DNA of 64,000 bases from an uncultured Thermoleophilia bacterium (GCA_963834905.1 CAWIDR010000037.1:29023-93022), one strand, 5' to 3'; counted from the first letter of the stretch, positions 34,010-44,115 are shown. Program-made: numbers and translations. Notes: generated from the sequence alone by a model not told the origin.

Positions 34010-34959
34010 CTAGCTGATCGCGAGCAGCGTGCAGGCCACGCAGGTGCAGGCCACGCCCACGTACTGCAGCCGCGACAGCCGCTCGTGCAGCACGAGGTAG
34101 CCCAGCAGGACCGCCATCGTCCCGCCCTGGGCGATGACCACCGAGGCGACCGCCAGCGGTCCGATCGCGATCGCCGCGGCGAAGAGGACGAATGCCGAAG
34201 CGTCGAACACGCCGGCGATCCCGCAGCGCCCGGCGAGCCGGCGCGGAAGCCGGAGCCCGCCGAGCAGCAGGGCCACCGGCAGCAGCACCAGCATGGTGCC
34301 CAGCCGGCCGAAGGCGGCGATGGCCACCGGATGCAGGGCGCCGGCCTCCGCCAGCAGCAGGATGACCACCGCGAACAGCGCCGACGACAGCAGGGCCCAG
34401 CCGGCTCCGGACGTGCCGCGGGCGCGACGAACGGGAGCGGCGGGCTCCACGCTCGCGACGGCAGCCGGCGCCCCCGGGGCGACGGCGCCGGCAGCGCCGC
34501 GATCGCCTCCGGCGCGCCCAGACCGAACACCTCCTCGGCCGGCGCCTTCTCGACGGAGGCGAGCAGGCCGCCGGCCACGGCGAGCGGCAGGCCGACCATC
34601 GCCGGCGTGGAGAGCGCCTCGCCGCCGATGATCGCGATCACCGCGACGATGCCGCCGGCCAGCGACGCCAGCGGCGTGACGATCGAGAGGTTGCCGGTGA
34701 CGAGGCCGCGGAGCAGACACGCCAGGGCCGCGGCCTCGCACAGGCCACCGGCCATGGCGAAGGCGACGGCCCGCCACTCGGCGGCTCCGGCGGGCGGACC
34801 GTACAGCACCAGGGCGAGCGGCAGAAGGATGAGGAGTCCCACGGCCATGGACCAGGACATCGCGGTCCAGAGGGCCACGGCGCGCACGACCTTGACCATG
34901 AGGAAGTCGTGGAGCGCGTAGCCGAGGGCCGAGCCCAGGCCGAGGACGACGGTGAGCAT
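34010..34959 (-). CDS. EamA/DMT-family transporter (frame break near 34480)
   Basis: N-terminal EamA half in ORF 33952..34959 and C-terminal half (GWALLSSALFAVVILLL...LLAIS*) in ORF 34010..35044. Confidence 0.7.
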
Positions 34960-35091: not shown

Positions 35092-36308
35092 TCAGTCGTC
35101 GGTGCGGCAGACCGTGAGGTCGGCGAAGTTGCGCGGCGCCAGGCCCTGGTGCTTCTCGGCGATGGTGTCGGCGAGCGCGTCGAGGCGCGCGTAGTCGTTC
35201 GTCGCGCGGCATGCCCTTGGCCAGCACCGGCTCGAGGAACTCGACCTTGAGCTTGGGCATCATGCCGGCCAGCGTCTCGACGGTCTTGCCGGCCCAGCCG
35301 TAGCTGCCGATCACGGTCGCGTACTTGGTGCGCGGCTTCAGCGCGTTCGCGAGCACGGCCGCGTACGGCGCCAGCGGATGCGGCCCGGTGAGCACCGTCG
35401 GCGTACCGAGGACGATGGTGCCGGCGTGCACCAGCGAGCTGGCGAGCTCGCCGGCGTCCAGCGTCGTGAGGTCGAAGCGCTCGATCGCGACGCCGCGGTT
35501 CGTGAGGGCCGCGGTGAGGTGGTCGACCATCTTGAGCGTGCTGTCGTGCATGCTGACGAACGGCAGGCAGACGATGTTCTGCGGCTCGCCGCCGGCCCAG
35601 TCCCGGTAGGCCTCGATGATGAACGCCGGGGTCGTCGTAGACGGGTCCGTGGCTCGGCCCGATGAACCTGATCGGGTACTGCGTCACCTTCTCGATGTTC
35701 TTCAGCACCTGGCTGCCGAACGGCATCATGATCTCGGCGTAGTAGCGCTTGGCGCCGTCGTAGACCTCGTGCTTGTCGGCGAAGACGTCGTTGGTGGCGT
35801 AGTGCGAGCCGAAGAAGTCGCAGCTGAAGAGGATCTGGTCCTCGCCCAGCCAGGTGCTCATCGTCTCGGGCCAGTGCACCCACGGCGTGAACAGGAACGT
35901 GAGCGTCTTGTCTCCGAGGCTCAGCGTGTCGCCGTCGGCCACGACCTGGAAGCGCGCGTCGTCCACGTGCAGGTGGTCGATCAGCATCGCCCTGCGCCTT
36001 CTCGTTGCAGACGATCGGTCAGATCGGGGTAGCGCTGCGAGGAGCTGCGGCGTGCAGCCCGAGTGGTCCTGCTCCACGTGGTTGATGACCAGGTAGTCGG
36101 GCGCCGGCAGCTCGTCGAGCTGCGCCATGAGCGTCGAACACCGGGCCGGGTCGCAGGTGTCGACCATCACGTTCTTCTCACTGCCCACGACGAAGTACGC
36201 GTTGTAGCTCGTGCCGTGGGGAAGGGGGATGAGCGCGTCGAACAGCCGGCGGTCCCAGTCGACGGCGCCGATGAGGTAGACGTTCTCGCGGATGATGCGT
36301 GGCTTCAT
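35092..36308 (-). CDS. FprA-type flavodiiron protein (MBL-like diiron domain + flavodoxin domain; frame breaks near 35200, 35625 and a scrambled stretch at 35985-36035)
   Basis: ATG 36308 after GAGG. YLIGAVDWDRRLFD, SYNAYFV, NHVEQDHSG and FSCDFFGSH (diiron site). Flavodoxin part in ORF 35081..35551 (IVLGTPTVLTGPHP, IGSYGWAG). Natural end DLTVCRTDD* at 35092. Confidence 0.8.
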
Positions 36309-36696
36309 GGTCACCTCGCGTGAGGTCGTGGCAAAGCGTTCTCGCCTCCGAGTATAACCACGCGCTGACGGGGTTCAGGGCCACGAGCGCGTCCGGATGG
36401 CGGAAATGGCCGGGGTCTGTGTGGACAGCGTATCGGGACTCGCCTCCTCGCTCCGCCGAGACCACGCGACCGGCGTGGTCGCGGGCCTCGACACGACGAG
36501 GTGACAGCAGACGGGCCTGCGCCCGACCCGACGGACTGTCCACGGTCCGGCTCACTCAAACGCCCAGGGGCACTGTCCCGCCTTGGAGGCTGGTACTAGG
36601 ATGCGGGGAGACGACGTCGAGGCCGAGGGAGGGCGTCGCCATGTCGAGGGGCGTGGCGGGGATGGTCTGCTCGTGTGAGTCATACGGGGCGGTGTG

Positions 36697-39600
36697 ATGC
36701 ACGCCTGCCCCGCCTGTAGCGCCGCCACACCAGAGGGCGCCCGATTCTGCCCCGCCTGCGGCAGGCCTCTGATCGTCCCGGAGACGCCCGCCGAGCGTAA
36801 GGTCGTCACGACCTTGTTCTGCGACCTCGTCGGCTTCACCCGACTGTCTGAGAACGCCGACCCGGAGGACGTCGACAGCATGCTGCGGCAGTACGCGGCC
36901 GCGGCCAGCCACGCCGTGGAGATCCACGGCGGCGTCGTGGAGAAGTTCGTCGGTGACGGGGTCGTCGCGGTGTTCGGCGTGCCGGCGGCCCACGAAGACG
37001 ATGCGGAGCGGGCCATCCACGCCGCGCTCCGCCTCTGCCGGGATGTGAGTGCCGTGACCGGTCCCGACGGAGCTCCCGTCAGCGTCCGTATCGGCATCAA
37101 CACCGGTGAAGCCCTCGCGCGTCTGGACCTTGCCCCCACCACCGGCGACGGCTTCCTCGCCGGCGACGCCGTCAACACGGCGGCACGCCTTCAGTCCGCC
37201 GCCCCGCCGGGCGGTATCCTGGTCGGTCCAGCTACCTATGCACTCACGAGCAGGCTGTTCCGTTTTGAGGAGCAGGAGCCCGTTGCGCTCAAGGGCAAGG
37301 CCGAGCCGCTACCTGTGTGGCTTGTCCTGGCGCCGGTGTCCCGCACTGGGGCCGACCACGCATCCTTCTCCTCGATCTTCGTGGGCCGGCGGGACGAGAT
37401 CGCCCGCCTCGAAGCGCTCCTCGAACAAGCGATCCGGCGACGGTCCGCGGGCGTGGCGCTCATCTCGGGCGAGCCGGGGATAGGCAAGTCACGCCTTCTG
37501 GCGGAGTTCTTCAGGCTGCTCGACCAACGGTCGCACGACGTCACGTGGCGACAGGGTCGGTGCCTCCCCTACGGCGAGGGCATCGCGTTCTGGCCCTTGG
37601 GCGAGATCGTCAAAGCACAGGCGGGCATCTTGGATACAGACAGTGTCGCGGCGACCGAACGCAAGCTCGCCAGGTCCCTGACCGAGCGCTCCGACACGAA
37701 GTGGATCCAGGAAAGGCTGCGACCCCTCGTGGGGCTCAGGGGGGCCGCCGCGCCGCAAGAGGAGAGCTTCTCGGCCTGGAACAGGTTCATCGAACAACTC
37801 GCGGCGCGGCGCCCGCTAATCCTGGTGGTGGAAGACCTGCATTGGGCGGACGACGCCATGCTGACGTTCCTGCGGCAGTTCACGGCAAGGGACTGGGGTG
37901 TCCCCCTCCTGCTCCTCATGACGGCCCGGACACACTTCTTCCAGGACGAGACCACCTTCGTCTCGTCGCTCCCCGCGGAAGGGCTCATCGCGCTGCCGCC
38001 ACTCGCCGCGGCGCAGATCAAGGAACTGCTGGCCGATCTGGTGGACGATCAGACGGTACTCCACCAGCTGGCTGCGTCGATCCTGGAGCGCTGTGGCGGT
38101 AATCCGCTGTACGCCGAGGAGTTGCTTCGACTGCTGAGAGAGCGCGGACTCCTCTCGACACCGGGGGACCTGGGGCAAGAAGTCGCCGCCGCGCTTCCAC
38201 AATCACTGCAGGCGGTCATCGCCGCCCGCATCGACGCGCTGCCCCCCCGTCTCAAGGAGTACCTCACCAACGCCGCCGTGGTGGGCCGGCGTTTCTGGGA
38301 CGGCGCCGTCGCGGCGCTTGCCGGCGACGGCGAGGCGCTCGATCAGGGCCTGCGGCGCCTCGCCGCGGCCGAACTCATACGCGTCGCGCCCAGCTCTTCG
38401 ATGTCGGGTCAGCGCGAGTACGTCTTCTGGCACGCGCTGACACGCGATGTGGCCTACAGTCAACTGACGCGTGGCCTGAGGGCAGAGAAGCACGAGCGCG
38501 TCGCCCGCTGGCTTGAAGAGCAGACCGGTGAGCGGGCAGAGGACCTGGCCGACGTGCTCGCTCATCATTACGTCACGGCTCTGGAGATGCGCTGCGAGCT
38601 CAAGGACGAAGCCGGGGCCGACGCGCTCCGCCGGCCTGCGGCAAGCGCACTGCACCTCGCCGGGAGCCGCGCGCTCGGCCTCAACGCGGGGGCCGCGGAG
38701 CGTCATCTTGCCCGGGCCGCGGCCCTTCTGCCCAAAGGAGCCGAGGACCGACCGAAGCTGCTCTTCGCGTGGGGCGAGGCCCTGATCGAGAGCAGCGAGC
38801 TTACGAAGGCGATCACCGCCCTGGAGGAGGGCATCCGTGAGGCCCGCGAGATGGGCGACGACAGAAGTGCGGCGATGGCCCTGCCACGGCTCTCATACGC
38901 GCATTGGCTGCGAGGTGACGCCAAGGGCTTGGAGGGGTCGGCGGAAGCCGTGGCGCTGCTGGAGAGGTACGGGCCGACACAGGAGCTCGTGAGGGCGCTG
39001 GAGAGCTGGGCCGCTGACTTGGCGCACGTCCCCGCATGTCTCCCTGCCATCGCGGCCTCCGATCGGGCCATCGCCATGGCTGCGGAGCTCGACCTCCCGG
39101 AGAGGCCCGCGGGCTTCGCCTCTCGCGGCATGGCTCACTGCAGCCTGGGGAACGCCGACGGGCTGACCGATCTGAAGTCCTCGGTCGACTTGGCTCTTGC
39201 GCTCGACGAGCCCCGCTGGGCCATCGCCTGCCGTTGCAATCTGGGCGACAACCTCTGCATCTTCGAGGGGCCCCGGGCCGCCCGCACCGTCCACACTGCC
39301 GCGCTGGACTCGTCGGTGCGCTTCGGCGGTCAACTGGCGAGCTGCTACTGCCACGAGGTGCTGTTCATCGACCTGGTGATCAGCGGCGAGTGGGACGAAG
39401 CGTTGCACGGAATGGCCGCTCTCGACCGCGAGCTCAACGGCCACGGGGACGCGTGGGATCTCGTGCACTTCAGGGCGACTGCCGCCTTGCTGCTGGCGCT
39501 CACGGGCGGTTCGGCTGCAGCCGAGTGCTATGCGCGTTTCGCAGAGACGAGCAGTCGCACGACACCTATGCTGGGCACCCGTGCCGCCGCGCTCGCGGGG

Positions 39601-40095
39601 CTCGCACAGGTGCTGTTCGCCTCGGGCCACCCCGAAGGCGCCGGGCGGTGGCTCCGCGACTGCGAGCGGCTGTCTGGCGACGTGCGCGGGCACTTCGACT
39701 ACGTCCTACGCCTACCCCACATGGTCCGTCTCGCCCACGAACTGGGAGACCCAACGCTCGCCGAGCGACTCATCGCGCGGGTGCCGCGTGGTTCCCGGTA
39801 TGCGGACCTGGCGCTGGCCGGGGCAGAAGCGCGTGGCGCCGAGACACGGTCGGAAGTACAGACTGCAGCAGCGCTCTGGCAAACGACGGCAGAGGGGTGG
39901 AACGACCTTGGAGTGCCGTTCGAGCACGCGCAGGCGTTGCTCGGCTACGGCCGGTGCCTGTTGCGGGCCGACGATCGGTCACGGGCGGAGACCGCCCTCC
40001 TGCAGGCCGACGCGGTGTTCGAGCGCCTCGGCGCCAAGCCCGTCCGTGAGGAGGTACGGAGACTCCTCGAGTTCACGCGGGGCGAGCCTCGATAG
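36697..40095 (+). CDS. STAND signalling protein: zinc-ribbon + class III adenylate/guanylate cyclase + AAA(P-loop) ATPase + TPR-like C-terminal region
   Basis: - Uninterrupted frame of about 1132 aa.
- Zinc ribbon: CPAC...CPAC.
- Cyclase core: VTTLFCDLVGFT, EKFVGDGVVAVFG, RIGINTGEA, GDAVNTAARL.
- Walker A: GEPGIGKSRL.
- Walker B-like: LILVVEDLHWAD.
- Long helical-repeat tail, with no C-terminal LuxR HTH seen. Confidence 0.85.
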   Translation: MHACPACSAATPEGARFCPACGRPLIVPETPAERKVVTTLFCDLVGFTRLSENADPEDVDSMLRQYAAAASHAVEIHGGVVEKFVGDGVVAVFGVPAAHEDDAERAIHAALRLCRDVSAVTGPDGAPVSVRIGINTGEALARLDLAPTTGDGFLAGDAVNTAARLQSAAPPGGILVGPATYALTSRLFRFEEQEPVALKGKAEPLPVWLVLAPVSRTGADHASFSSIFVGRRDEIARLEALLEQAIRRRSAGVALISGEPGIGKSRLLAEFFRLLDQRSHDVTWRQGRCLPYGEGIAFWPLGEIVKAQAGILDTDSVAATERKLARSLTERSDTKWIQERLRPLVGLRGAAAPQEESFSAWNRFIEQLAARRPLILVVEDLHWADDAMLTFLRQFTARDWGVPLLLLMTARTHFFQDETTFVSSLPAEGLIALPPLAAAQIKELLADLVDDQTVLHQLAASILERCGGNPLYAEELLRLLRERGLLSTPGDLGQEVAAALPQSLQAVIAARIDALPPRLKEYLTNAAVVGRRFWDGAVAALAGDGEALDQGLRRLAAAELIRVAPSSSMSGQREYVFWHALTRDVAYSQLTRGLRAEKHERVARWLEEQTGERAEDLADVLAHHYVTALEMRCELKDEAGADALRRPAASALHLAGSRALGLNAGAAERHLARAAALLPKGAEDRPKLLFAWGEALIESSELTKAITALEEGIREAREMGDDRSAAMALPRLSYAHWLRGDAKGLEGSAEAVALLERYGPTQELVRALESWAADLAHVPACLPAIAASDRAIAMAAELDLPERPAGFASRGMAHCSLGNADGLTDLKSSVDLALALDEPRWAIACRCNLGDNLCIFEGPRAARTVHTAALDSSVRFGGQLASCYCHEVLFIDLVISGEWDEALHGMAALDRELNGHGDAWDLVHFRATAALLLALTGGSAAAECYARFAETSSRTTPMLGTRAAALAGLAQVLFASGHPEGAGRWLRDCERLSGDVRGHFDYVLRLPHMVRLAHELGDPTLAERLIARVPRGSRYADLALAGAEARGAETRSEVQTAAALWQTTAEGWNDLGVPFEHAQALLGYGRCLLRADDRSRAETALLQADAVFERLGAKPVREEVRRLLEFTRGEPR

Positions 40096-41913
40096 CCAGG
40101 CTCAGGCAGCGATCCCCGATCCGGGCCATCAGGCGCCGCCTCACGAACGCCTTCAGACAGCGGTCCACCTGGTCGTGGTCGCACCCGAGCTGACGACTCG
40201 CCTGATCGTACACATCACCCACGGACGCAATGTCGGCACAAGCTCGATACACCAGTCGCTCGAGAGCGGTCAAGCGGATGTCGCGTACCGGAGCACGGGG
40301 ACGATCATCCACGAGCGACAGTCTCTCCTCGCCGTCTTCGCTCATCCAGAGAGCCTCGTGGGTGAAGTCGCGCTGCCAGGCGCGGACCTGATCTCGAAGG
40401 CGTTCGCGAAGCCCCCGACCGATGGCGACCGGACTACAACTGTACTGAAAGGCGTAGGCGATGCGGGCCAGCGCGGGCTCCGGGAAGGGGTAGAGGTAGC
40501 GATAGGGAGTCAGGGATCTGATATCCCGAAAGCCGTATCGCTCTGGCTGTTCGAAGAAGGGGCTGTACCTGTCGAGGCTGACCGGGCCGCAGCACCGCGG
40601 CGGGACCAGGAAGGTGAGCGACGGCACCAGGTCCAGCATCTCCTGGTAGTCCTCGGCCGTCTCGCCGGGAAACCCATACACGATGTTCCAGTGGGGGATG
40701 GCGCCGTACTGCCTGCACCACTTGAGCAGACGCACGTTCTCGAGCGCCCCCACGCCTTTGTGCATCAGGGCGAGGACCCCGTCGCTGAAGCTTTCGATGC
40801 CTGGCTGGAACTGCACGTCCAGCTCACCCATGAGGCGCACCTGCTCGCGGGTCACGGTCGGCCGCGTGTTGAAGAACAGCGGCAGGCGTGGAGGGTCGGC
40901 GGCAAGCGCCGGCAGGACCTCGGTCAGGAACGAGGGGGCGACAACGTTGTCCACGAGAAACAGCCTGCCTCCTCGCCATGCTCGGGCCAGCTCATGCAGC
41001 TCCCGCACCACCCTTGCTGGACTCTTGGTGCGGAAGACGCGCTCGTCGGCGTCCAGCCCACAGAAGCCACAGGGGTGCCGTTCACCCCACCAGCATCCCC
41101 TGCTGGACTCCATGGGCACGGAGGGCAACGGCCCCCTGGCTCTCGGCCACGCTTTGAGCGCCGCGAAGTAGTCGCCATGGTCCGGGTACGGCCAGAGCAT
41201 CGAGATCGCCGTAGGGCCCAGCGCTGCCCGTGCTCACAGATGCGCCGTTCGCGCGATAGACGATGCCGGCGATCCCCTGCAGTGCCTCAGGATGTCCATC
41301 GAGCGCGGCGACGGCGGCAGGCAGGGATGCGTCGGCGTCGCCCGAGAACGCGAGGTCGACAAACGAGAAGCGACGGTGGAAGCTCCAGCCCCATCTCTCC
41401 CTGCCAGTTGGCGCCGCCGAACGCGATGCGAATCGATGGAAACCGCTCCTTCACCAGTCGTGCGAGGGCGAGCGACCCGATGTTCTGGGCCGTGCTCGAG
41501 CTGAACCCAACGAGGTCATAGTCGGCCCAAGGCGTCGCCTCCAGGGCCCGGCGAAGGAATCGACCGCCCATTGCCCGGGCCTCGAGGACGATCTCGACGT
41601 CGTCATCCTCGAGCCCCCACGTATCGAGCAGAACGTCGTCGACGTAGCCTTCATCCGGAGCGGCCCCGGAGCCGTACAGGGCGGGTGTGAAGACCCACTC
41701 TCCGGCGAGGGCGGCGAAGGGGATCCCGTCGGAGATGCGATCGTAGAGCGGCCGCGACAGCAGATGCGCGAACTCGACGTTCAGGTACATGACGTCGCAA
41801 CGCACCCCGCGGGCCAGGAGGAGTGCCTTCAGCGTGCTCACGCCGATGGCAGGGCGCTCCACCGACACGAACGGCATGCAGACGAGAAGGACCTTCACCG
41901 GCTCCCTCCGCAC
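40073..41913 (-). CDS. B12-binding-domain radical SAM enzyme, RiPP-maturase type (TIGR03975-like; frame breaks near 41200 and 41380)
   Basis: N-terminal cobalamin-binding-like domain (KVLLVCMPFVS...) in ORF 41287..41913. The middle piece (HRRFSFVDLAFSGDADASLPAAV...IVYRANG) is in a second frame. The rSAM core in ORF 40073..41200 carries SRGCWWGERHPCGFCGL (Cys triad at 41060..41095). Alternative start GTG 41898 follows GGAGGGAG. Confidence 0.8.
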
Positions 41914-41934
41914 CCCGTCAGATGGATAGGCCGC

Positions 41935-42267
41935 TCAGCTCTTCTGGTCCTGCGTCATCGTGTGATGCTGGGGCACGATGTCTCTGAGCGTCGTCTTCAC
42001 AATGTCGATCGAGAACGCCGGCATCGTGACGGTCTTCACCTTGCCTTCCAGCGCGAGATACATGTCGAGGGCGAGCGCCTTGTCCGCGGATGGAAGAGAG
42101 CCGATGGCGACGTAGTCGTGCTCCCCCATCGTGACGCAGAACTCCCTGAGCTGCCCTCCGAGCTCCGTCTCCCAGATCCGCTTGATCTCCTTGTGAAAGT
42201 GCGGCGCCAGCTCGAGCTCGCGTGCGCCTTCTCCGGTCAACTTCATGAGCAGGACGTAGTCAGACAT
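41935..42267 (-). CDS. GYD-domain protein
   Basis: ATG 42267 after GGAGGGAAGC. 110 aa: MSDYVLLMKLTGEGA...MGEHDYVAIGSLPSADKALAL, the GYD-family pattern, plus a 12-15 aa polar tail (VPQHHTMTQDQKS). The stop is 22 bp (or 37 bp) upstream of the rSAM start. Confidence 0.75.
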   Translation of the reverse strand: MSDYVLLMKLTGEGARELELAPHFHKEIKRIWETELGGQLREFCVTMGEHDYVAIGSLPSADKALALDMYLALEGKVKTVTMPAFSIDIVKTTLRDIVPQHHTMTQDQKS

Positions 42268-42380
42268 GCTTCCCTCCCTTTCCACCGGCGCCTTCGATTC
42301 GCGCCGCCGCCAGAAGCCTACCGCCGCCACGCGACGCACTACTACTGTTTGCAGACTGTCCGTCTGCCCGGCGTGCGACC

Positions 42381-42813
42381 ATGAGCAAGATGACGGTCGC
42401 GTTCCTCCTCACGCCTTTCAGCGCCAAGGCCGCCGGCGACGAGAAGCCGGCGACGTTTCGCAGCGTGCAGAAGGCGGTTCGGGACGCCCGCCGCAGCGGG
42501 GGTGGAGCTGCGCCGGGCCGACAGTATCTTCAAGGCCGGCGTCATCGTGGAGCAGGTCCGCGAGGAGATCGAGCATGCCGATATCATCATCGCGATCTGC
42601 ACCGGCAAGAACGCGAACGTGTTCTATGAGCTGGGGCTGGCTGAGGCACTCGGCCACGAGCCCATCCTGATCGCGCCCGACGCGTCACATCTGCCGTTCG
42701 ACAAGGCGCACTGCCGCTGCAACATGTACGGCGGCAAACGGCAGACGGTCAAGAACCTGGCGCCGAGGCTGGCCAAGGTGATCGAGGAGACCCTGGCAGC
42801 GAGGAGGTCATGA
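42381..42813 (+). CDS. small Rossmannoid protein, TIR-like / nucleoside 2-deoxyribosyltransferase-like (frame break in the G5 run near 42497)
   Basis: About 143 aa: MTVAFLLTPF...(shift)...ADSIFKAGVIVEQVREEIEHADIIIAICTGKNANVFYELGLAEALGHEPILIAPD...LPFD. The (T/D)x(N)xNVxYELGxAxAxG motif is shared by COG4271/PF10137 TIR-like and PF05014-like domains. Confidence 0.5.
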
Positions 42814-42891
42814 TGCGGACGGCGGGCGACTGCGTCCGACGACAGCGGCGGCGTTCGCGGCGTGCGCATGCAGCGGATCCGCCGCCGTGCT

Positions 42892-44115
42892 CTATCGCGT
42901 CAGCTCGTCCGCCAGCTGCTCGACGAAGAGGCCGACGTCGGTGACGATGCCGATGGCCTGGAACGAGCCGCGGTCGGCCAGCTTGGTGACGACCGCGGGG
43001 TTGATGTCGGCGCAGACGGTACGCACACTGGCCGGCAGCATGTTGCCGACGGCGATGCTGTGCAGCATCGTGCTGAGCATGAGGCAGGCGCCGGCCTGCT
43101 GCGCGTAGCGCCGCATCTCGCGCTGCGCCTGCATCACGTCGGTGATCACCTCGGGCATGGGGCCGTCGTCGCGGATGCTGCCGGCGAGCACGTACGGCGT
43201 GTCGGTCTGCGTGAGCGTGTACATGAGGCCGCCGGTCAGGATGCCCTTGTCGACGGCGGCCCGGATGCTCCCGGCGCGCCGGATGGTGTTGATGGCGCGC
43301 AGGTGGTGCTCGTGCCCGCCCGGCACAGCCGCTCCCGACTTGAGGTTGATGCCGAGCGACGTGCCGTAGAGGTTGCTCTCGATGTCGTGGGTGGCGACGG
43401 CGTTGCCGCCGAACACGCAGCCCACGAAGCCGGCCTCGATGAGGCGGGCCAGCTGCGGCGCCGCCCCCGTGTGCACCACGGCGGGGCCGACCACCGCGAT
43501 CGTGAGCCGGCCCTCCTCTTTGACCTGGCGCAGGATGTGGGCCACTTCGTGGACGATCTGCGCCTTGGGCTTCTCGCTGCTCACGGCGCTGGCCATGAAC
43601 TCGAACGGCTGGCTCTCGCGCGGCCGTTCGAGCGGCAGCACGCGGATGCCTCTGTGGCCGGTGACGAAGAGGTCGCCGGCCCGCACGTCGCTCATCGCCA
43701 CGGTCTCCGCGGAGACCTCTTCGGGGTCGACGCGGATGCCGCAGTCCATCTCGGGGTGTCCGACGCGGATCCACTCGCCGCCGACGCGGACGAACGTGGT
43801 CAGGTTGGTCGTGGAGTAGAAGCGCTCGGGGAAGACGCCGTCGACGTCCGCCGCCTCGAGGATGGCGTCTTGCGGCTTGACGGCGACGACGCCGAACTCG
43901 GTGATCGCCGTCATCAGCTCGTCGAGGTGCGCGGCGTCGCGGCCGAAGATGCGCATCACGGCGTGCGAGGGGTCGTCCTTCATGCGCCCGACCTCGAAGG
44001 TGAGCATCTCGAACTCCCCGTCGAGGTCCATCACCTGGTCCATGATGTGCGGCATCATGAGCGAGTCGATGAGGTGGCCCTCGATCTCGACGTCTTCGTA
44101 TGGCATGTCGGGCAT
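42892..44115 (-). CDS. TIGR00300 / LOR-SDH-domain family protein (ornithine-cyclodeaminase-like)
   Basis: 407-aa uninterrupted ORF. It has an N-terminal ACT-like part and a C-terminal Rossmann-like part (VVGPAVVHTGAAP, FGGNAVATHD, GHEHHLRAIN) characteristic of the archaeal/bacterial TIGR00300 family. Confidence 0.7.
   Translation of the reverse strand: MPDMPYEDVEIEGHLIDSLMMPHIMDQVMDLDGEFEMLTFEVGRMKDDPSHAVMRIFGRDAAHLDELMTAITEFGVVAVKPQDAILEAADVDGVFPERFYSTTNLTTFVRVGGEWIRVGHPEMDCGIRVDPEEVSAETVAMSDVRAGDLFVTGHRGIRVLPLERPRESQPFEFMASAVSSEKPKAQIVHEVAHILRQVKEEGRLTIAVVGPAVVHTGAAPQLARLIEAGFVGCVFGGNAVATHDIESNLYGTSLGINLKSGAAVPGGHEHHLRAINTIRRAGSIRAAVDKGILTGGLMYTLTQTDTPYVLAGSIRDDGPMPEVITDVMQAQREMRRYAQQAGACLMLSTMLHSIAVGNMLPASVRTVCADINPAVVTKLADRGSFQAIGIVTDVGLFVEQLADELTR

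Follow-up and report, generated by a model that had tools for sequence, protein, structure and literature searches.

The known chemistry of the cobalamin-dependent radical-SAM (radical S-adenosylmethionine) family TIGR03975 is C-methylation (PMC5682303), and structured, protein-like leaders are established for the NHLP class of RiPPs (peptides made by the ribosome and modified after translation; PMC12537861). In the literature the family is named only in passing, in surveys of biosynthetic gene clusters. Two further cobalamin radical-SAM enzymes act on a protein and not on a cleaved peptide: the MCR glutamine C-methyltransferase (QCMT; TIGR04014, PDB entry 9CCB), which belongs to class I, and Mmp10, a class II enzyme with a C-terminal B12 domain (PMC12931638). 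At the comQXPA pherotype loci, polymorphism is shared by the modifying enzyme, the precursor and the receptor's sensor part (PMC4408185). The present analysis concerns a locus in a 64,000-nt stretch of DNA from an uncultured Thermoleophilia bacterium (the window; G+C content ∼70%), in which the gene of a GYD-domain protein (PF08734) directly precedes that of a TIGR03975 enzyme, while a gene for a nucleotide cyclase with a STAND ATPase domain converges on the pair. These three genes form a conserved triad within a hypervariable island, and the short C-terminal tail of the GYD protein is a candidate substrate of the enzyme. GYD is a widespread domain for which, to our knowledge, no function is known; in a full-text literature search it was not linked to radical-SAM enzymes, and only a single paper named the domain itself. 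The main features of the locus are the following:

41935..42267, minus strand: gene of a 110-aa GYD-domain protein, at the head of the operon; its product is the probable substrate or 'precursor' (from PF08734, an AlphaFold2 (AF2) model and relatives)
41938..41970, minus strand: C-terminal extension of the GYD protein, Q100-S110 (QHHTMTQDQKS), following ...IVP99, where the canonical GYD part ends; candidate 'core' or site of modification (from comparison with generic GYD proteins, AF2 and His enrichment)
40073..41898, minus strand: TIGR03975-type cobalamin/radical-SAM gene, ∼607 aa after repair of two frameshifts, alternative start at 41913 (from TIGR03975, PF04055, and the start codon with its Shine-Dalgarno (SD) sequence)
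36694..40095, plus strand: third gene of the conserved module, for a 1133-aa protein with a Zn-ribbon, a class III nucleotide cyclase domain, a STAND (AAA_16) ATPase domain and a TPR-like C-terminal region (from Pfam and synteny)
40073..40095: overlap of the 3' ends of the radical-SAM and cyclase genes, 23 nt

The enzyme is a bona fide member of TIGR03975, the family that had been recognised in an initial annotation of this DNA, and in itself an ordinary representative of a known family. After repair of the reading frame, the 612-aa conceptual protein scores 556.2 bits against TIGR03975 (cut-off 281.85 bits), with residues 8-607 aligned to positions 1-606 of the 606 in the profile, and it does not group with non-RiPP enzymes. 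The SRGCWWGERHPCGFCGL cluster is present; the radical-SAM cysteine cluster (CxxxxxxxCxxC in TIGR03975) reads CWWGERHPCGFC, with C273, C281 and C284 invariant in 25 relatives, and the protein matches PF04055 with 55.8 bits. The match to the B12-binding profile PF02310 is weak (19.9 bits; cut-off 32.1), and the N-terminal region aligns by profile to the B12 domains of TokK, OxsB and CysS. An intact 609-aa orthologue (P0004, from locus L001) is 72% identical to the window enzyme, the C-terminal third being the most variable part of the protein. The radical-SAM core has ten positions whose residues reach 90% conservation or more in the GYD-linked clade described below and are rare elsewhere.

The nearest solved structures are those of class-I B12 radical-SAM enzymes, namely TokK (E=8e-14) and QCMT (E=5.5e-10). 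Mmp10 had initially been named as the precedent for a B12 radical-SAM enzyme acting on a whole protein; the closer precedent is QCMT, which shares class I with the window enzyme and is a detectable homologue of it (38.8 bits; PMC12931638), whereas Mmp10 is of class II. Like these two enzymes, the window enzyme may act on a protein instead of a cleaved peptide, to judge from its candidate substrate. The homology is distant, however, and QCMT and Mmp10 modify buried active-site residues of a large enzyme, whereas the candidate site described here belongs to the disordered C-terminal tail of the neighbouring gene's 110-aa product.

The two genes are closely packed. The GYD gene has a strong SD sequence, GGAAAGGGAGGGAAGC, in front of its ATG. 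The likeliest start of the radical-SAM gene is the GTG at 41898, which has GGAGG 6 nt upstream and fits the V[RK]VLLV start of the relatives; its stop codon lies at 40073-40075. The distance from the GYD stop to the enzyme start is 36 nt, or 21 nt if the alternative GTG at 41913 is used, in line with the 22-37 bp given in the initial annotation. The same account had described the operon as closed by a divergent gene from 42381 and a convergent gene ending at 40095, without an NHLP/Nif11-type precursor or other small open reading frame (ORF), and this also holds. A conventional precursor gene has no room at the locus, because the unassigned DNA amounts to only 113 nt and 78 nt; in L001 the whole interval between the gene of an ornithine cyclodeaminase (OCD) and the GYD gene measures 98 nt.

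The conservation of this arrangement was surveyed with an iterated GYD profile in ∼160 fetched TIGR03975 loci (80 from genomes and 79 from metagenomes). Matches were confined to 12 distinct loci, among them L008 as a marginal, divergent case, and invariably lay directly upstream of the enzyme gene. Altogether, a GYD gene is located directly upstream of the enzyme gene in the window, L001-L008, L024, L088, L089, L093, L100, L101, L171, L172 and the P0138 contig. Both relatives of the GYD protein with known context (L001 and L002) have the enzyme gene immediately downstream, and the same arrangement is present in L004, L005 and L007, whose enzymes are ∼50% identical to that of the window. The adjacency of GYD and radical-SAM genes is not due to chance, because it recurs in at least 15 independent loci. 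In a neighbour-joining (NJ) tree of the enzymes the GYD-linked loci form one clade, together with L073 and L152 (L152 without upstream DNA). A second build, to which the 120 best protein hits were added, places 98 tips in this clade (14 loci and 84 protein clusters) and no GYD-less TIGR03975 locus inside it. The adjacency is kept across the whole clade, at 42-72% identity.

The convergent gene is an equally constant companion. A gene for a cyclase-STAND-TPR protein of ∼1130 aa is found in every clade locus with downstream DNA, usually overlapping the 3' end of the enzyme gene, and the overlap amounts to 32-91 nt in L004, L005, L007 and the P0138 contig. Neither the GYD gene nor this cyclase gene occurs in any of the ∼150 other TIGR03975 loci; the members of the triad thus strictly co-occur in a single TIGR03975 clade. 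The two-gene operon of the initial annotation is real as far as the GYD-radical-SAM pair is concerned, but the unit to which it belongs is the triad. With at least 84 protein clusters in the enzyme clade, mostly from soil metagenomes and uncultured Thermoleophilia, the system is not a one-off. All-against-all ORF clustering, near the ∼160 TIGR03975 loci and for all ORFs of the clade loci, yielded as conserved genes of the clade loci only GYD, radical-SAM, cyclase and flank genes, without a protease, a C39 peptidase/ABC exporter or a transporter. No canonical NHLP (TIGR03793) or Nif11 (TIGR03798) precursor lies nearby in any clade relative, including the DNA just outside the operon. In other TIGR03975 clades, Nif11/NHLP-type or other candidate precursor genes are found just upstream or downstream of the enzyme gene, with Nif11/NHLP-like peptides in a few.

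The GYD protein scores 62.1 bits against PF08734 over residues 4-90 (cut-off 31.4; Pfam scoring), and residues G48 and D51 of the GYD motif G-x-x-D are invariant among the aligned GYD proteins. No NCBIfam model was matched, and none exists for this GYD subgroup. The AF2 model (pLDDT 88) displays a ferredoxin-like β-α-β-β-α-β fold followed by a C-terminal helix, with low confidence over the last ∼10 residues. A fold search returned weak, generic ferredoxin-like matches only (E ∼1e-3) and no functional lead, and no signal peptide was seen in the sequence by eye. An identical sequence has been recorded, and relatives share 83% and 78% identity with the protein; among 5.8 billion sequences only three close homologues were found.

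What distinguishes the enzyme-linked GYD proteins is their C-terminus. Generic GYD proteins are ∼97 aa long, end in '...vkkLP' and have no radical-SAM or cyclase neighbour, whereas the enzyme-linked proteins run past the canonical proline by 3-56 aa, in extensions that are enriched in His and Pro. When 1.8 billion representatives were searched with a profile, 1588 GYD relatives were obtained; of the 163 nearest, which were examined, 68 run beyond the canonical end by at least 3 residues. Over the first 8 residues of these tails His is the most enriched residue (4.9-fold, Fisher p ∼1e-11), followed by Pro (3.2-fold). Examples of the tails, with the canonical end given first, are:

window: IVP, then QHHTMTQDQKS
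L004: IMP, then FHR
L005: GP, then KVHGTLTHEDPGS
L088: TP, then KLHKIF...
L007: KP, then LKHN
L008 type: (V/L)P, then NIHKTGGLLHD...
L171: ...LLVHYGNKK

A universal tail motif P-x(1,2)-H was considered and rejected: it holds for the subclade of the window and fails in L089, L093, L024 and L100, so that it describes an enrichment and not a rule. The 12-residue tail core of the window protein, I97-Q108, shows no change in its three closest relatives, the bodies of which diverge by 17-22%, with differences at 17-23 of 94 codons. The GYD partner of the L008 type is a divergent member, with a score of 21.4 bits against PF08734 that lies below the threshold. Terminal repeats are also present in other extended GYD proteins, P0143, P0151 and P0174 (RRDEDDGRPS three times, GKLRG five times, and GGKFGGG).

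A GYD domain with an appended tail, encoded beside the enzyme, fits the layout of a RiPP precursor, in which a recognition region is followed by a separate C-terminal region. Two variant loci bear on this comparison. In L172, at the same OCD locus and with the N-terminus of the enzyme encoded downstream of GYD, the GYD tail is built from three tandem copies of EETRHNVK[RF]P and two of EPPAPEPP. L073 lacks the GYD gene; its slot is filled by a 43-aa ORF, MAHDNTLRPSPHRPPEPPEPPEPGRPNPHRPPEPPEPPEPHEG, which carries three PH motifs, is preceded by a strong SD sequence (GAGGAGG) and lies 38 nt upstream of the enzyme start. Tails with repeats and a stand-alone, tail-like peptide are expected of substrates, and for this reason the GYD protein is better explained as a substrate than as an accessory. 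The initial annotation had left open whether the GYD protein, its tail, or neither was modified, the protein then being a partner or chaperone; the evidence leans towards the tail as the substrate, given that the extension is carried by linked and not by unlinked GYD proteins and that invariant core, repeats and a free peptide occur.

Alternatively, the GYD protein could be an accessory, either a recognition or chaperone subunit in the manner of PqqD or a RiPP recognition element, or a handler of metal or cobalamin by way of its His tail, while the true substrate is the cyclase, an unrecognised peptide or a small molecule. Its compact folded domain, with only weak ferredoxin-like structural neighbours, would suit such a role, as would those tails that have no His or are very short. 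Divergence of the cyclase also goes along with that of the enzyme. Tails that contain or are rich in His (QHH, QFHTHHHEP, HAHR) also recall those of metallochaperones. Most tails, however, have one His and not a metal-binding cluster, the tandem repeats in L172 are typical of multi-core substrates and not of a chaperone, and the replacement of GYD by a short SD-preceded peptide in L073 is hard to square with an essential accessory. Moreover, the clade loci have no other conserved small ORF, and L001 has no space for one. An accessory role is regarded as unlikely.

Compared with the proteusin-type (PoyB/PoyC-like) systems, the locus shows the same enzyme family over its full length, with the putative B12 domain N-terminal to the radical-SAM core (class I), and an adjacent candidate substrate gene that encodes a structured N-terminal domain followed by a C-terminal segment, as in NHLP leaders (PMC12537861, PMC5682303). 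It differs in that the structured domain has a GYD fold instead of an NHLP or Nif11 fold, and in that a GG-type cleavage motif, a C39 peptidase/ABC exporter and any other protease are missing. The tails can be as short as 3-6 residues, and ten residues of the active-site region are clade-specific. The obligate convergent cyclase-STAND neighbour and the hypervariability of the locus are likewise peculiar to the system described here.

The cyclase protein matches Guanylate_cyc with 81.7 bits, AAA_16 with 88.7 bits, and Zn_Ribbon_1 in Pfam, where all TPR matches were below threshold and no membrane domain was matched. Its domain order is that of the actinobacterial cyclase-ATPase-TPR proteins of the Mycobacterium tuberculosis Rv0386 type. 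It also resembles TIGR03903, the TOMM system kinase/cyclase fusion, in having a STAND/AAA_16 ATPase and a helical-repeat region behind a class III cyclase: over residues 26-652 it aligns to positions 276-905 of this profile with 238.1 bits, below the cut-off of 705.75. TIGR03903 is named for the TOMM system, which modifies peptides. Unlike TIGR03903, the window protein has no kinase domain and no LuxR helix-turn-helix, and its partners are a B12 radical-SAM enzyme and a GYD protein instead of a cyclodehydratase. The motifs FxDLVGFT, KFxGDA, NTAxR, GxGKS and hhhhEDxHWA, which include the metal-binding Asp residues, the N/R transition-state motif and the Walker A and B motifs, are kept in all nine aligned alleles, and because of this conservation the protein is likely active. 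The C-terminal TPR part is the most diverged (∼30% identity) and the cyclase domain the least (∼52%); in the comparison with L004 the identity steps down from ∼72% to ∼35% near residue 650.

The triad is situated in an island with sharp boundaries. In blastn comparisons with L008 and L093, an identity of 94-96% breaks off at 42876-42886 and is found again from 36372, the interval being practically devoid of similarity. The island and its upstream neighbours are:

36373..42885: island of 6.5 kb with the NDT/TIR-like, GYD, radical-SAM and cyclase genes, between near-identical flanks
42381..42813, plus strand: divergent small gene, ∼145 aa after repair of one frameshift; nucleoside-2-deoxyribosyltransferase (NDT)/TIR-like, variable cargo of the island
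42892..44115: gene of a nickel-pincer-dependent OCD, beyond the NDT/TIR-like gene

A lower GC bias had been noted by eye for the block from 36.7 to 44 kb. The drop is confirmed (G+C 0.679 in the island and 0.715 in the rest of the window), whereas the bounds are to be moved to 36373..42885. At third codon positions the G+C content is 0.81-0.87 for the GYD, radical-SAM and cyclase genes and 0.966 for the flanking OCD and substrate-binding protein (SBP) genes. Overall, the flanks are 92-97% identical from genome to genome, against 33-57% for the trio in each pair. The contrast between flanks and module is evident from the identities with close relatives (the window against L004, L008 or L093 unless stated):

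OCD, flank: 97% aa
SBP, flank: 90-96% aa
ODP (oxygen-diiron/lactamase-B), flank: 86-91% aa against L004, ∼94% nt against L008 and L093
GYD, module: 38-46% aa (L004, L093)
enzyme, module: 45-54% aa
cyclase, module: 37-57% aa

The same relation holds for every pair of eight syntenic loci, with identities of 85-99% for OCD, 40-54% for the enzyme and 33-57% for the cyclase. In L024 and L171, OCD is 99% identical, the enzyme 45% and the cyclase 42%. Because the genes converge, GYD, the enzyme and the C-terminus of the cyclase make up one continuous, most variable stretch. The presence of a single deeply diverged allele per genome between near-identical flanks, together with the strict link to a STAND cyclase whose catalytic motifs are intact, points to a specificity system and not to a housekeeping modification.

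In this respect the locus recalls the pherotype loci comQXPA of Bacillus and agrBDCA of staphylococci, where enzyme, precursor and the sensor part of the receptor also lie in one contiguous block, which is deeply polymorphic among close relatives while the flanks and the output domain are conserved (PMC4408185). No component is homologous, however. The present system has no signal peptide and no exporter, and its candidate receptor is a cytoplasmic STAND cyclase instead of a membrane histidine kinase.

The accessory cargo of the island varies between alleles, because L004 and L007 hold membrane proteins where the window has the NDT/TIR-like gene. These predicted membrane proteins, of 266 and 200 aa (L004:4698-5498 and L007:4700-5302, between OCD and GYD), are unrelated and have no Pfam match. 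The NDT/TIR-like gene is found inside the island only in the window, L008 (9079-9588, minus strand) and L088 (5678-5974, minus strand); it stands beside GYD in the window and beside the cyclase start in the other two. Its match to PF05014 (23 bits) is below the cut-off, and its PADLOC match to the Pycsar 'TIR effector' is marginal (E=4e-6). In L171 the interval between OCD and GYD (L171:2566-3886) contains an AAA_14/DUF4143 gene together with a fragment duplicated from the OCD C-terminus, which suggests insertion or recombination activity at the left boundary of the island. Between OCD and the 43-aa peptide of L073 (L073:5981-7432) there is a second stretch with 67% nt identity to the SBP_bac_5 gene, a duplicated or diverged copy at the boundary.

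Such an island would also be in keeping with a conflict system for anti-phage defence or kin discrimination, in which the STAND sensor detects an invader through its TPR end and fires the cyclase, sometimes towards a TIR-like effector, with GYD and the radical-SAM enzyme as effector, decoy or regulator. Every genome carries a deeply diverged allele at one conserved site with sharp boundaries and lower third-position G+C, and the TPR end is the most variable part of the sensor. The class III cyclase domain matches the Pycsar PycC models (63 bits), and the neighbouring small gene matches the Pycsar TIR-effector model at the E value given above. The PycC matches are no stronger than the generic PF00211 match (81.7 bits), however, and remain at the generic level. 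The cyclase, in contrast to that of Pycsar, is fused to a STAND sensor, no effector that binds cyclic nucleotide monophosphates (cNMPs) is conserved, and the TIR/NDT-like gene has no cNMP-binding domain, occurs in only three alleles and scores below the Pfam threshold. GYD and the radical-SAM enzyme have no PADLOC match, and no phage or mobile-element genes flank the island. A known defence system was not called: PADLOC gave a generic cyclase match and the marginal TIR-like match only. This interpretation leaves the roles of GYD and the enzyme unexplained and is compatible with a substrate role of the tail; as an account of the locus in its own right it appears clearly unlikely, somewhat more so than an accessory function of GYD.

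The tail as substrate, within a triad that is a functional unit, is thus the preferred reading, and from the comparisons made here its chances are judged to be about even. For the role of GYD, the residue modified, the chemistry and the contact with the cyclase we infer the following course. The GYD domain would take the place that NHLP and Nif11 leaders have with other TIGR03975 enzymes and serve as a large, structured leader, and the appended tail would be the 'core' that is alkylated by the co-transcribed class-I B12 radical-SAM enzyme. The alkylation would most likely be a C-methylation, probably at or next to the recurrent histidine of P-x(0-3)-H. Since no protease or exporter is conserved, the product would probably stay in the cell as a modified small protein or tail. 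The modified GYD protein, as a cognate ligand or partner of the STAND cyclase, would then probably switch cNMP synthesis by way of the cyclase's hypervariable TPR end, although this reader function of the cyclase is proposed with less confidence than the preceding steps. The three genes would diversify jointly, as allele-specific sets at a fixed chromosomal site.

Several observations weigh against this scheme. The tails of L089, L093, L024 and L100 contain no His, that of L100 being only ∼6 residues long, and a single conserved target residue is not universal in the GYD tails. The His motif could serve in binding, or in ligation of metal or cobalamin, instead of being the target. C-methylation is taken over from the name of TIGR03975 and from its PoyB/PoyC-type members, whereas the residues near the active site differ in this clade. 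The free peptide of L073 comes from a single locus of a metagenome-assembled genome, the NJ tree carries no bootstrap support values, and the enzyme gene of the window is frameshifted. The cyclase gene lies on the opposite strand and is connected to the module by synteny and co-divergence only, and for an intracellular ligand-receptor pair there is no obvious reason for such extreme diversification. A further, though rather unlikely, possibility is a self-contained ligand-receptor system in which the enzyme marks the GYD tail as an allele-specific ligand and only the cognate cytoplasmic STAND cyclase reads the mark through its TPR region and turns it into a cyclic-nucleotide signal. Selection of a balancing or diversifying kind, exerted by phage mimicry, kin discrimination or incompatibility, would then keep dozens of mutually incompatible alleles at one site in soil Thermoleophilia.

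The frame breaks in the enzyme gene, which had been placed at about 41200 and 41380, were located precisely:

41380..41381, minus strand: frameshift 1, an extra T, GAGCTTCCAC here versus GAGCTCCAC in relatives
41182..41183, minus strand: frameshift 2, an extra G, CCCGGACC here versus CCCGACC in relatives

Both are 1-nt homopolymer insertions (TT at 41381/41380 and GG at 41183/41182) relative to two intact relatives, L001 and L002, whose enzyme genes are uninterrupted. They could signify that the gene is a true pseudogene and the locus is decaying, and would then yield no more than a B12-domain fragment of 208 aa and a radical-SAM fragment of 375 aa. The two disrupting insertions lie 198 nt apart without restoring the frame, and the ORFs as read are 41287..41913 and 40073..41200; if the insertions are real, the module is inactive in this genome. 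All three segments of the gene, however, are ∼70% identical to the intact orthologue and have no stops in the corrected frame, and both changes are of the +1 homopolymer type. Within 9 kb, four further breaks occur in three unrelated and otherwise well-conserved genes: relative to syntenic relatives (the contig L004) there are two in the ODP gene (35095-36308, minus strand) and one in an EamA transporter gene (34013-34959, minus strand), and a frame switch against the L008 orthologue reveals one in the NDT/TIR-like gene, near 42490. With six breaks in ∼12 kb of coding sequence, about one in every 2 kb, two within one 1.8-kb gene are unremarkable, and the related contig L007 has similarly split genes. 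An assembly error is the probable cause and the likelier one, because breaks of the same type hit three unrelated neighbouring genes; the interrupted ODP, EamA and NDT/TIR-like genes indicate a general indel problem of the assembly. As a signal of a pseudogene specific to this locus the frameshifts were accordingly dropped as the leading interpretation, and decay of the enzyme gene is considered quite improbable. A plot of third-position G+C by frame is uninformative for a window-wide count of frameshifts, as the gene junctions of operons resemble frameshifts in it.

Upstream of the GYD gene a short element is conserved:

42315..42349, minus strand: conserved upstream element, composed of AACAGTAGTA (42340-42349) and TAGGCT (42315-42320; fits the -10 pattern TAnnnT)

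The 10-mer (L001:86, L002:103) and the hexamer, as TAGGCT or TACGCT, are kept in the window, L001 and L002 amid diverged upstream DNA, and the 10-mer was found nowhere else in the fetched loci. This element may be the promoter or operator of the GYD-radical-SAM operon. Other alleles have looser strings resembling TAGTAC, TAGACT or TAGAAT upstream of GYD. A scan of the operon for sigma-70 consensus promoters and terminators gave no match.

Outside the GYD-linked clade, other proteins are encoded directly upstream of TIGR03975 genes. In 44 loci of sister clades this position is occupied by a ∼600-aa S8-peptidase-like protein (e.g. L116:672-2501 and L009:5981-7894; also L090 and L025), which has C-terminal, Pro-rich tandem repeats (e.g. 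PIRPTPILPTPIRPTP... and REPIQPRQPIQP...) followed by an acidic tail. From its architecture this protein may represent another class of TIGR03975 substrates in which a folded protein carries a repeat tail. In 21 further loci (L038, L044, L121, L165 and 17 others) the upstream gene encodes a Ser/Thr kinase-TPR protein of 900-1100 aa. Large signalling proteins thus recur beside the TIGR03975 family in several clades.

The enzyme family of this locus is already known; the novelty lies in the class of its candidate substrate, in its obligate partner and in how the locus behaves in population-genetic terms. The association with a radical-SAM enzyme provides a concrete, testable handle on the GYD family. 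If the tail is the substrate, the range of TIGR03975 would be widened from NHLP and Nif11 peptides to a folded protein with a short tail, and the free-peptide and tandem-repeat variants suggest ways in which new RiPP precursors could arise from, or be shed by, folded proteins. If the reading as an allele-specific ligand-receptor system is true, it would provide the first function for the GYD family and a new form of RiPP-like, non-secreted signalling.

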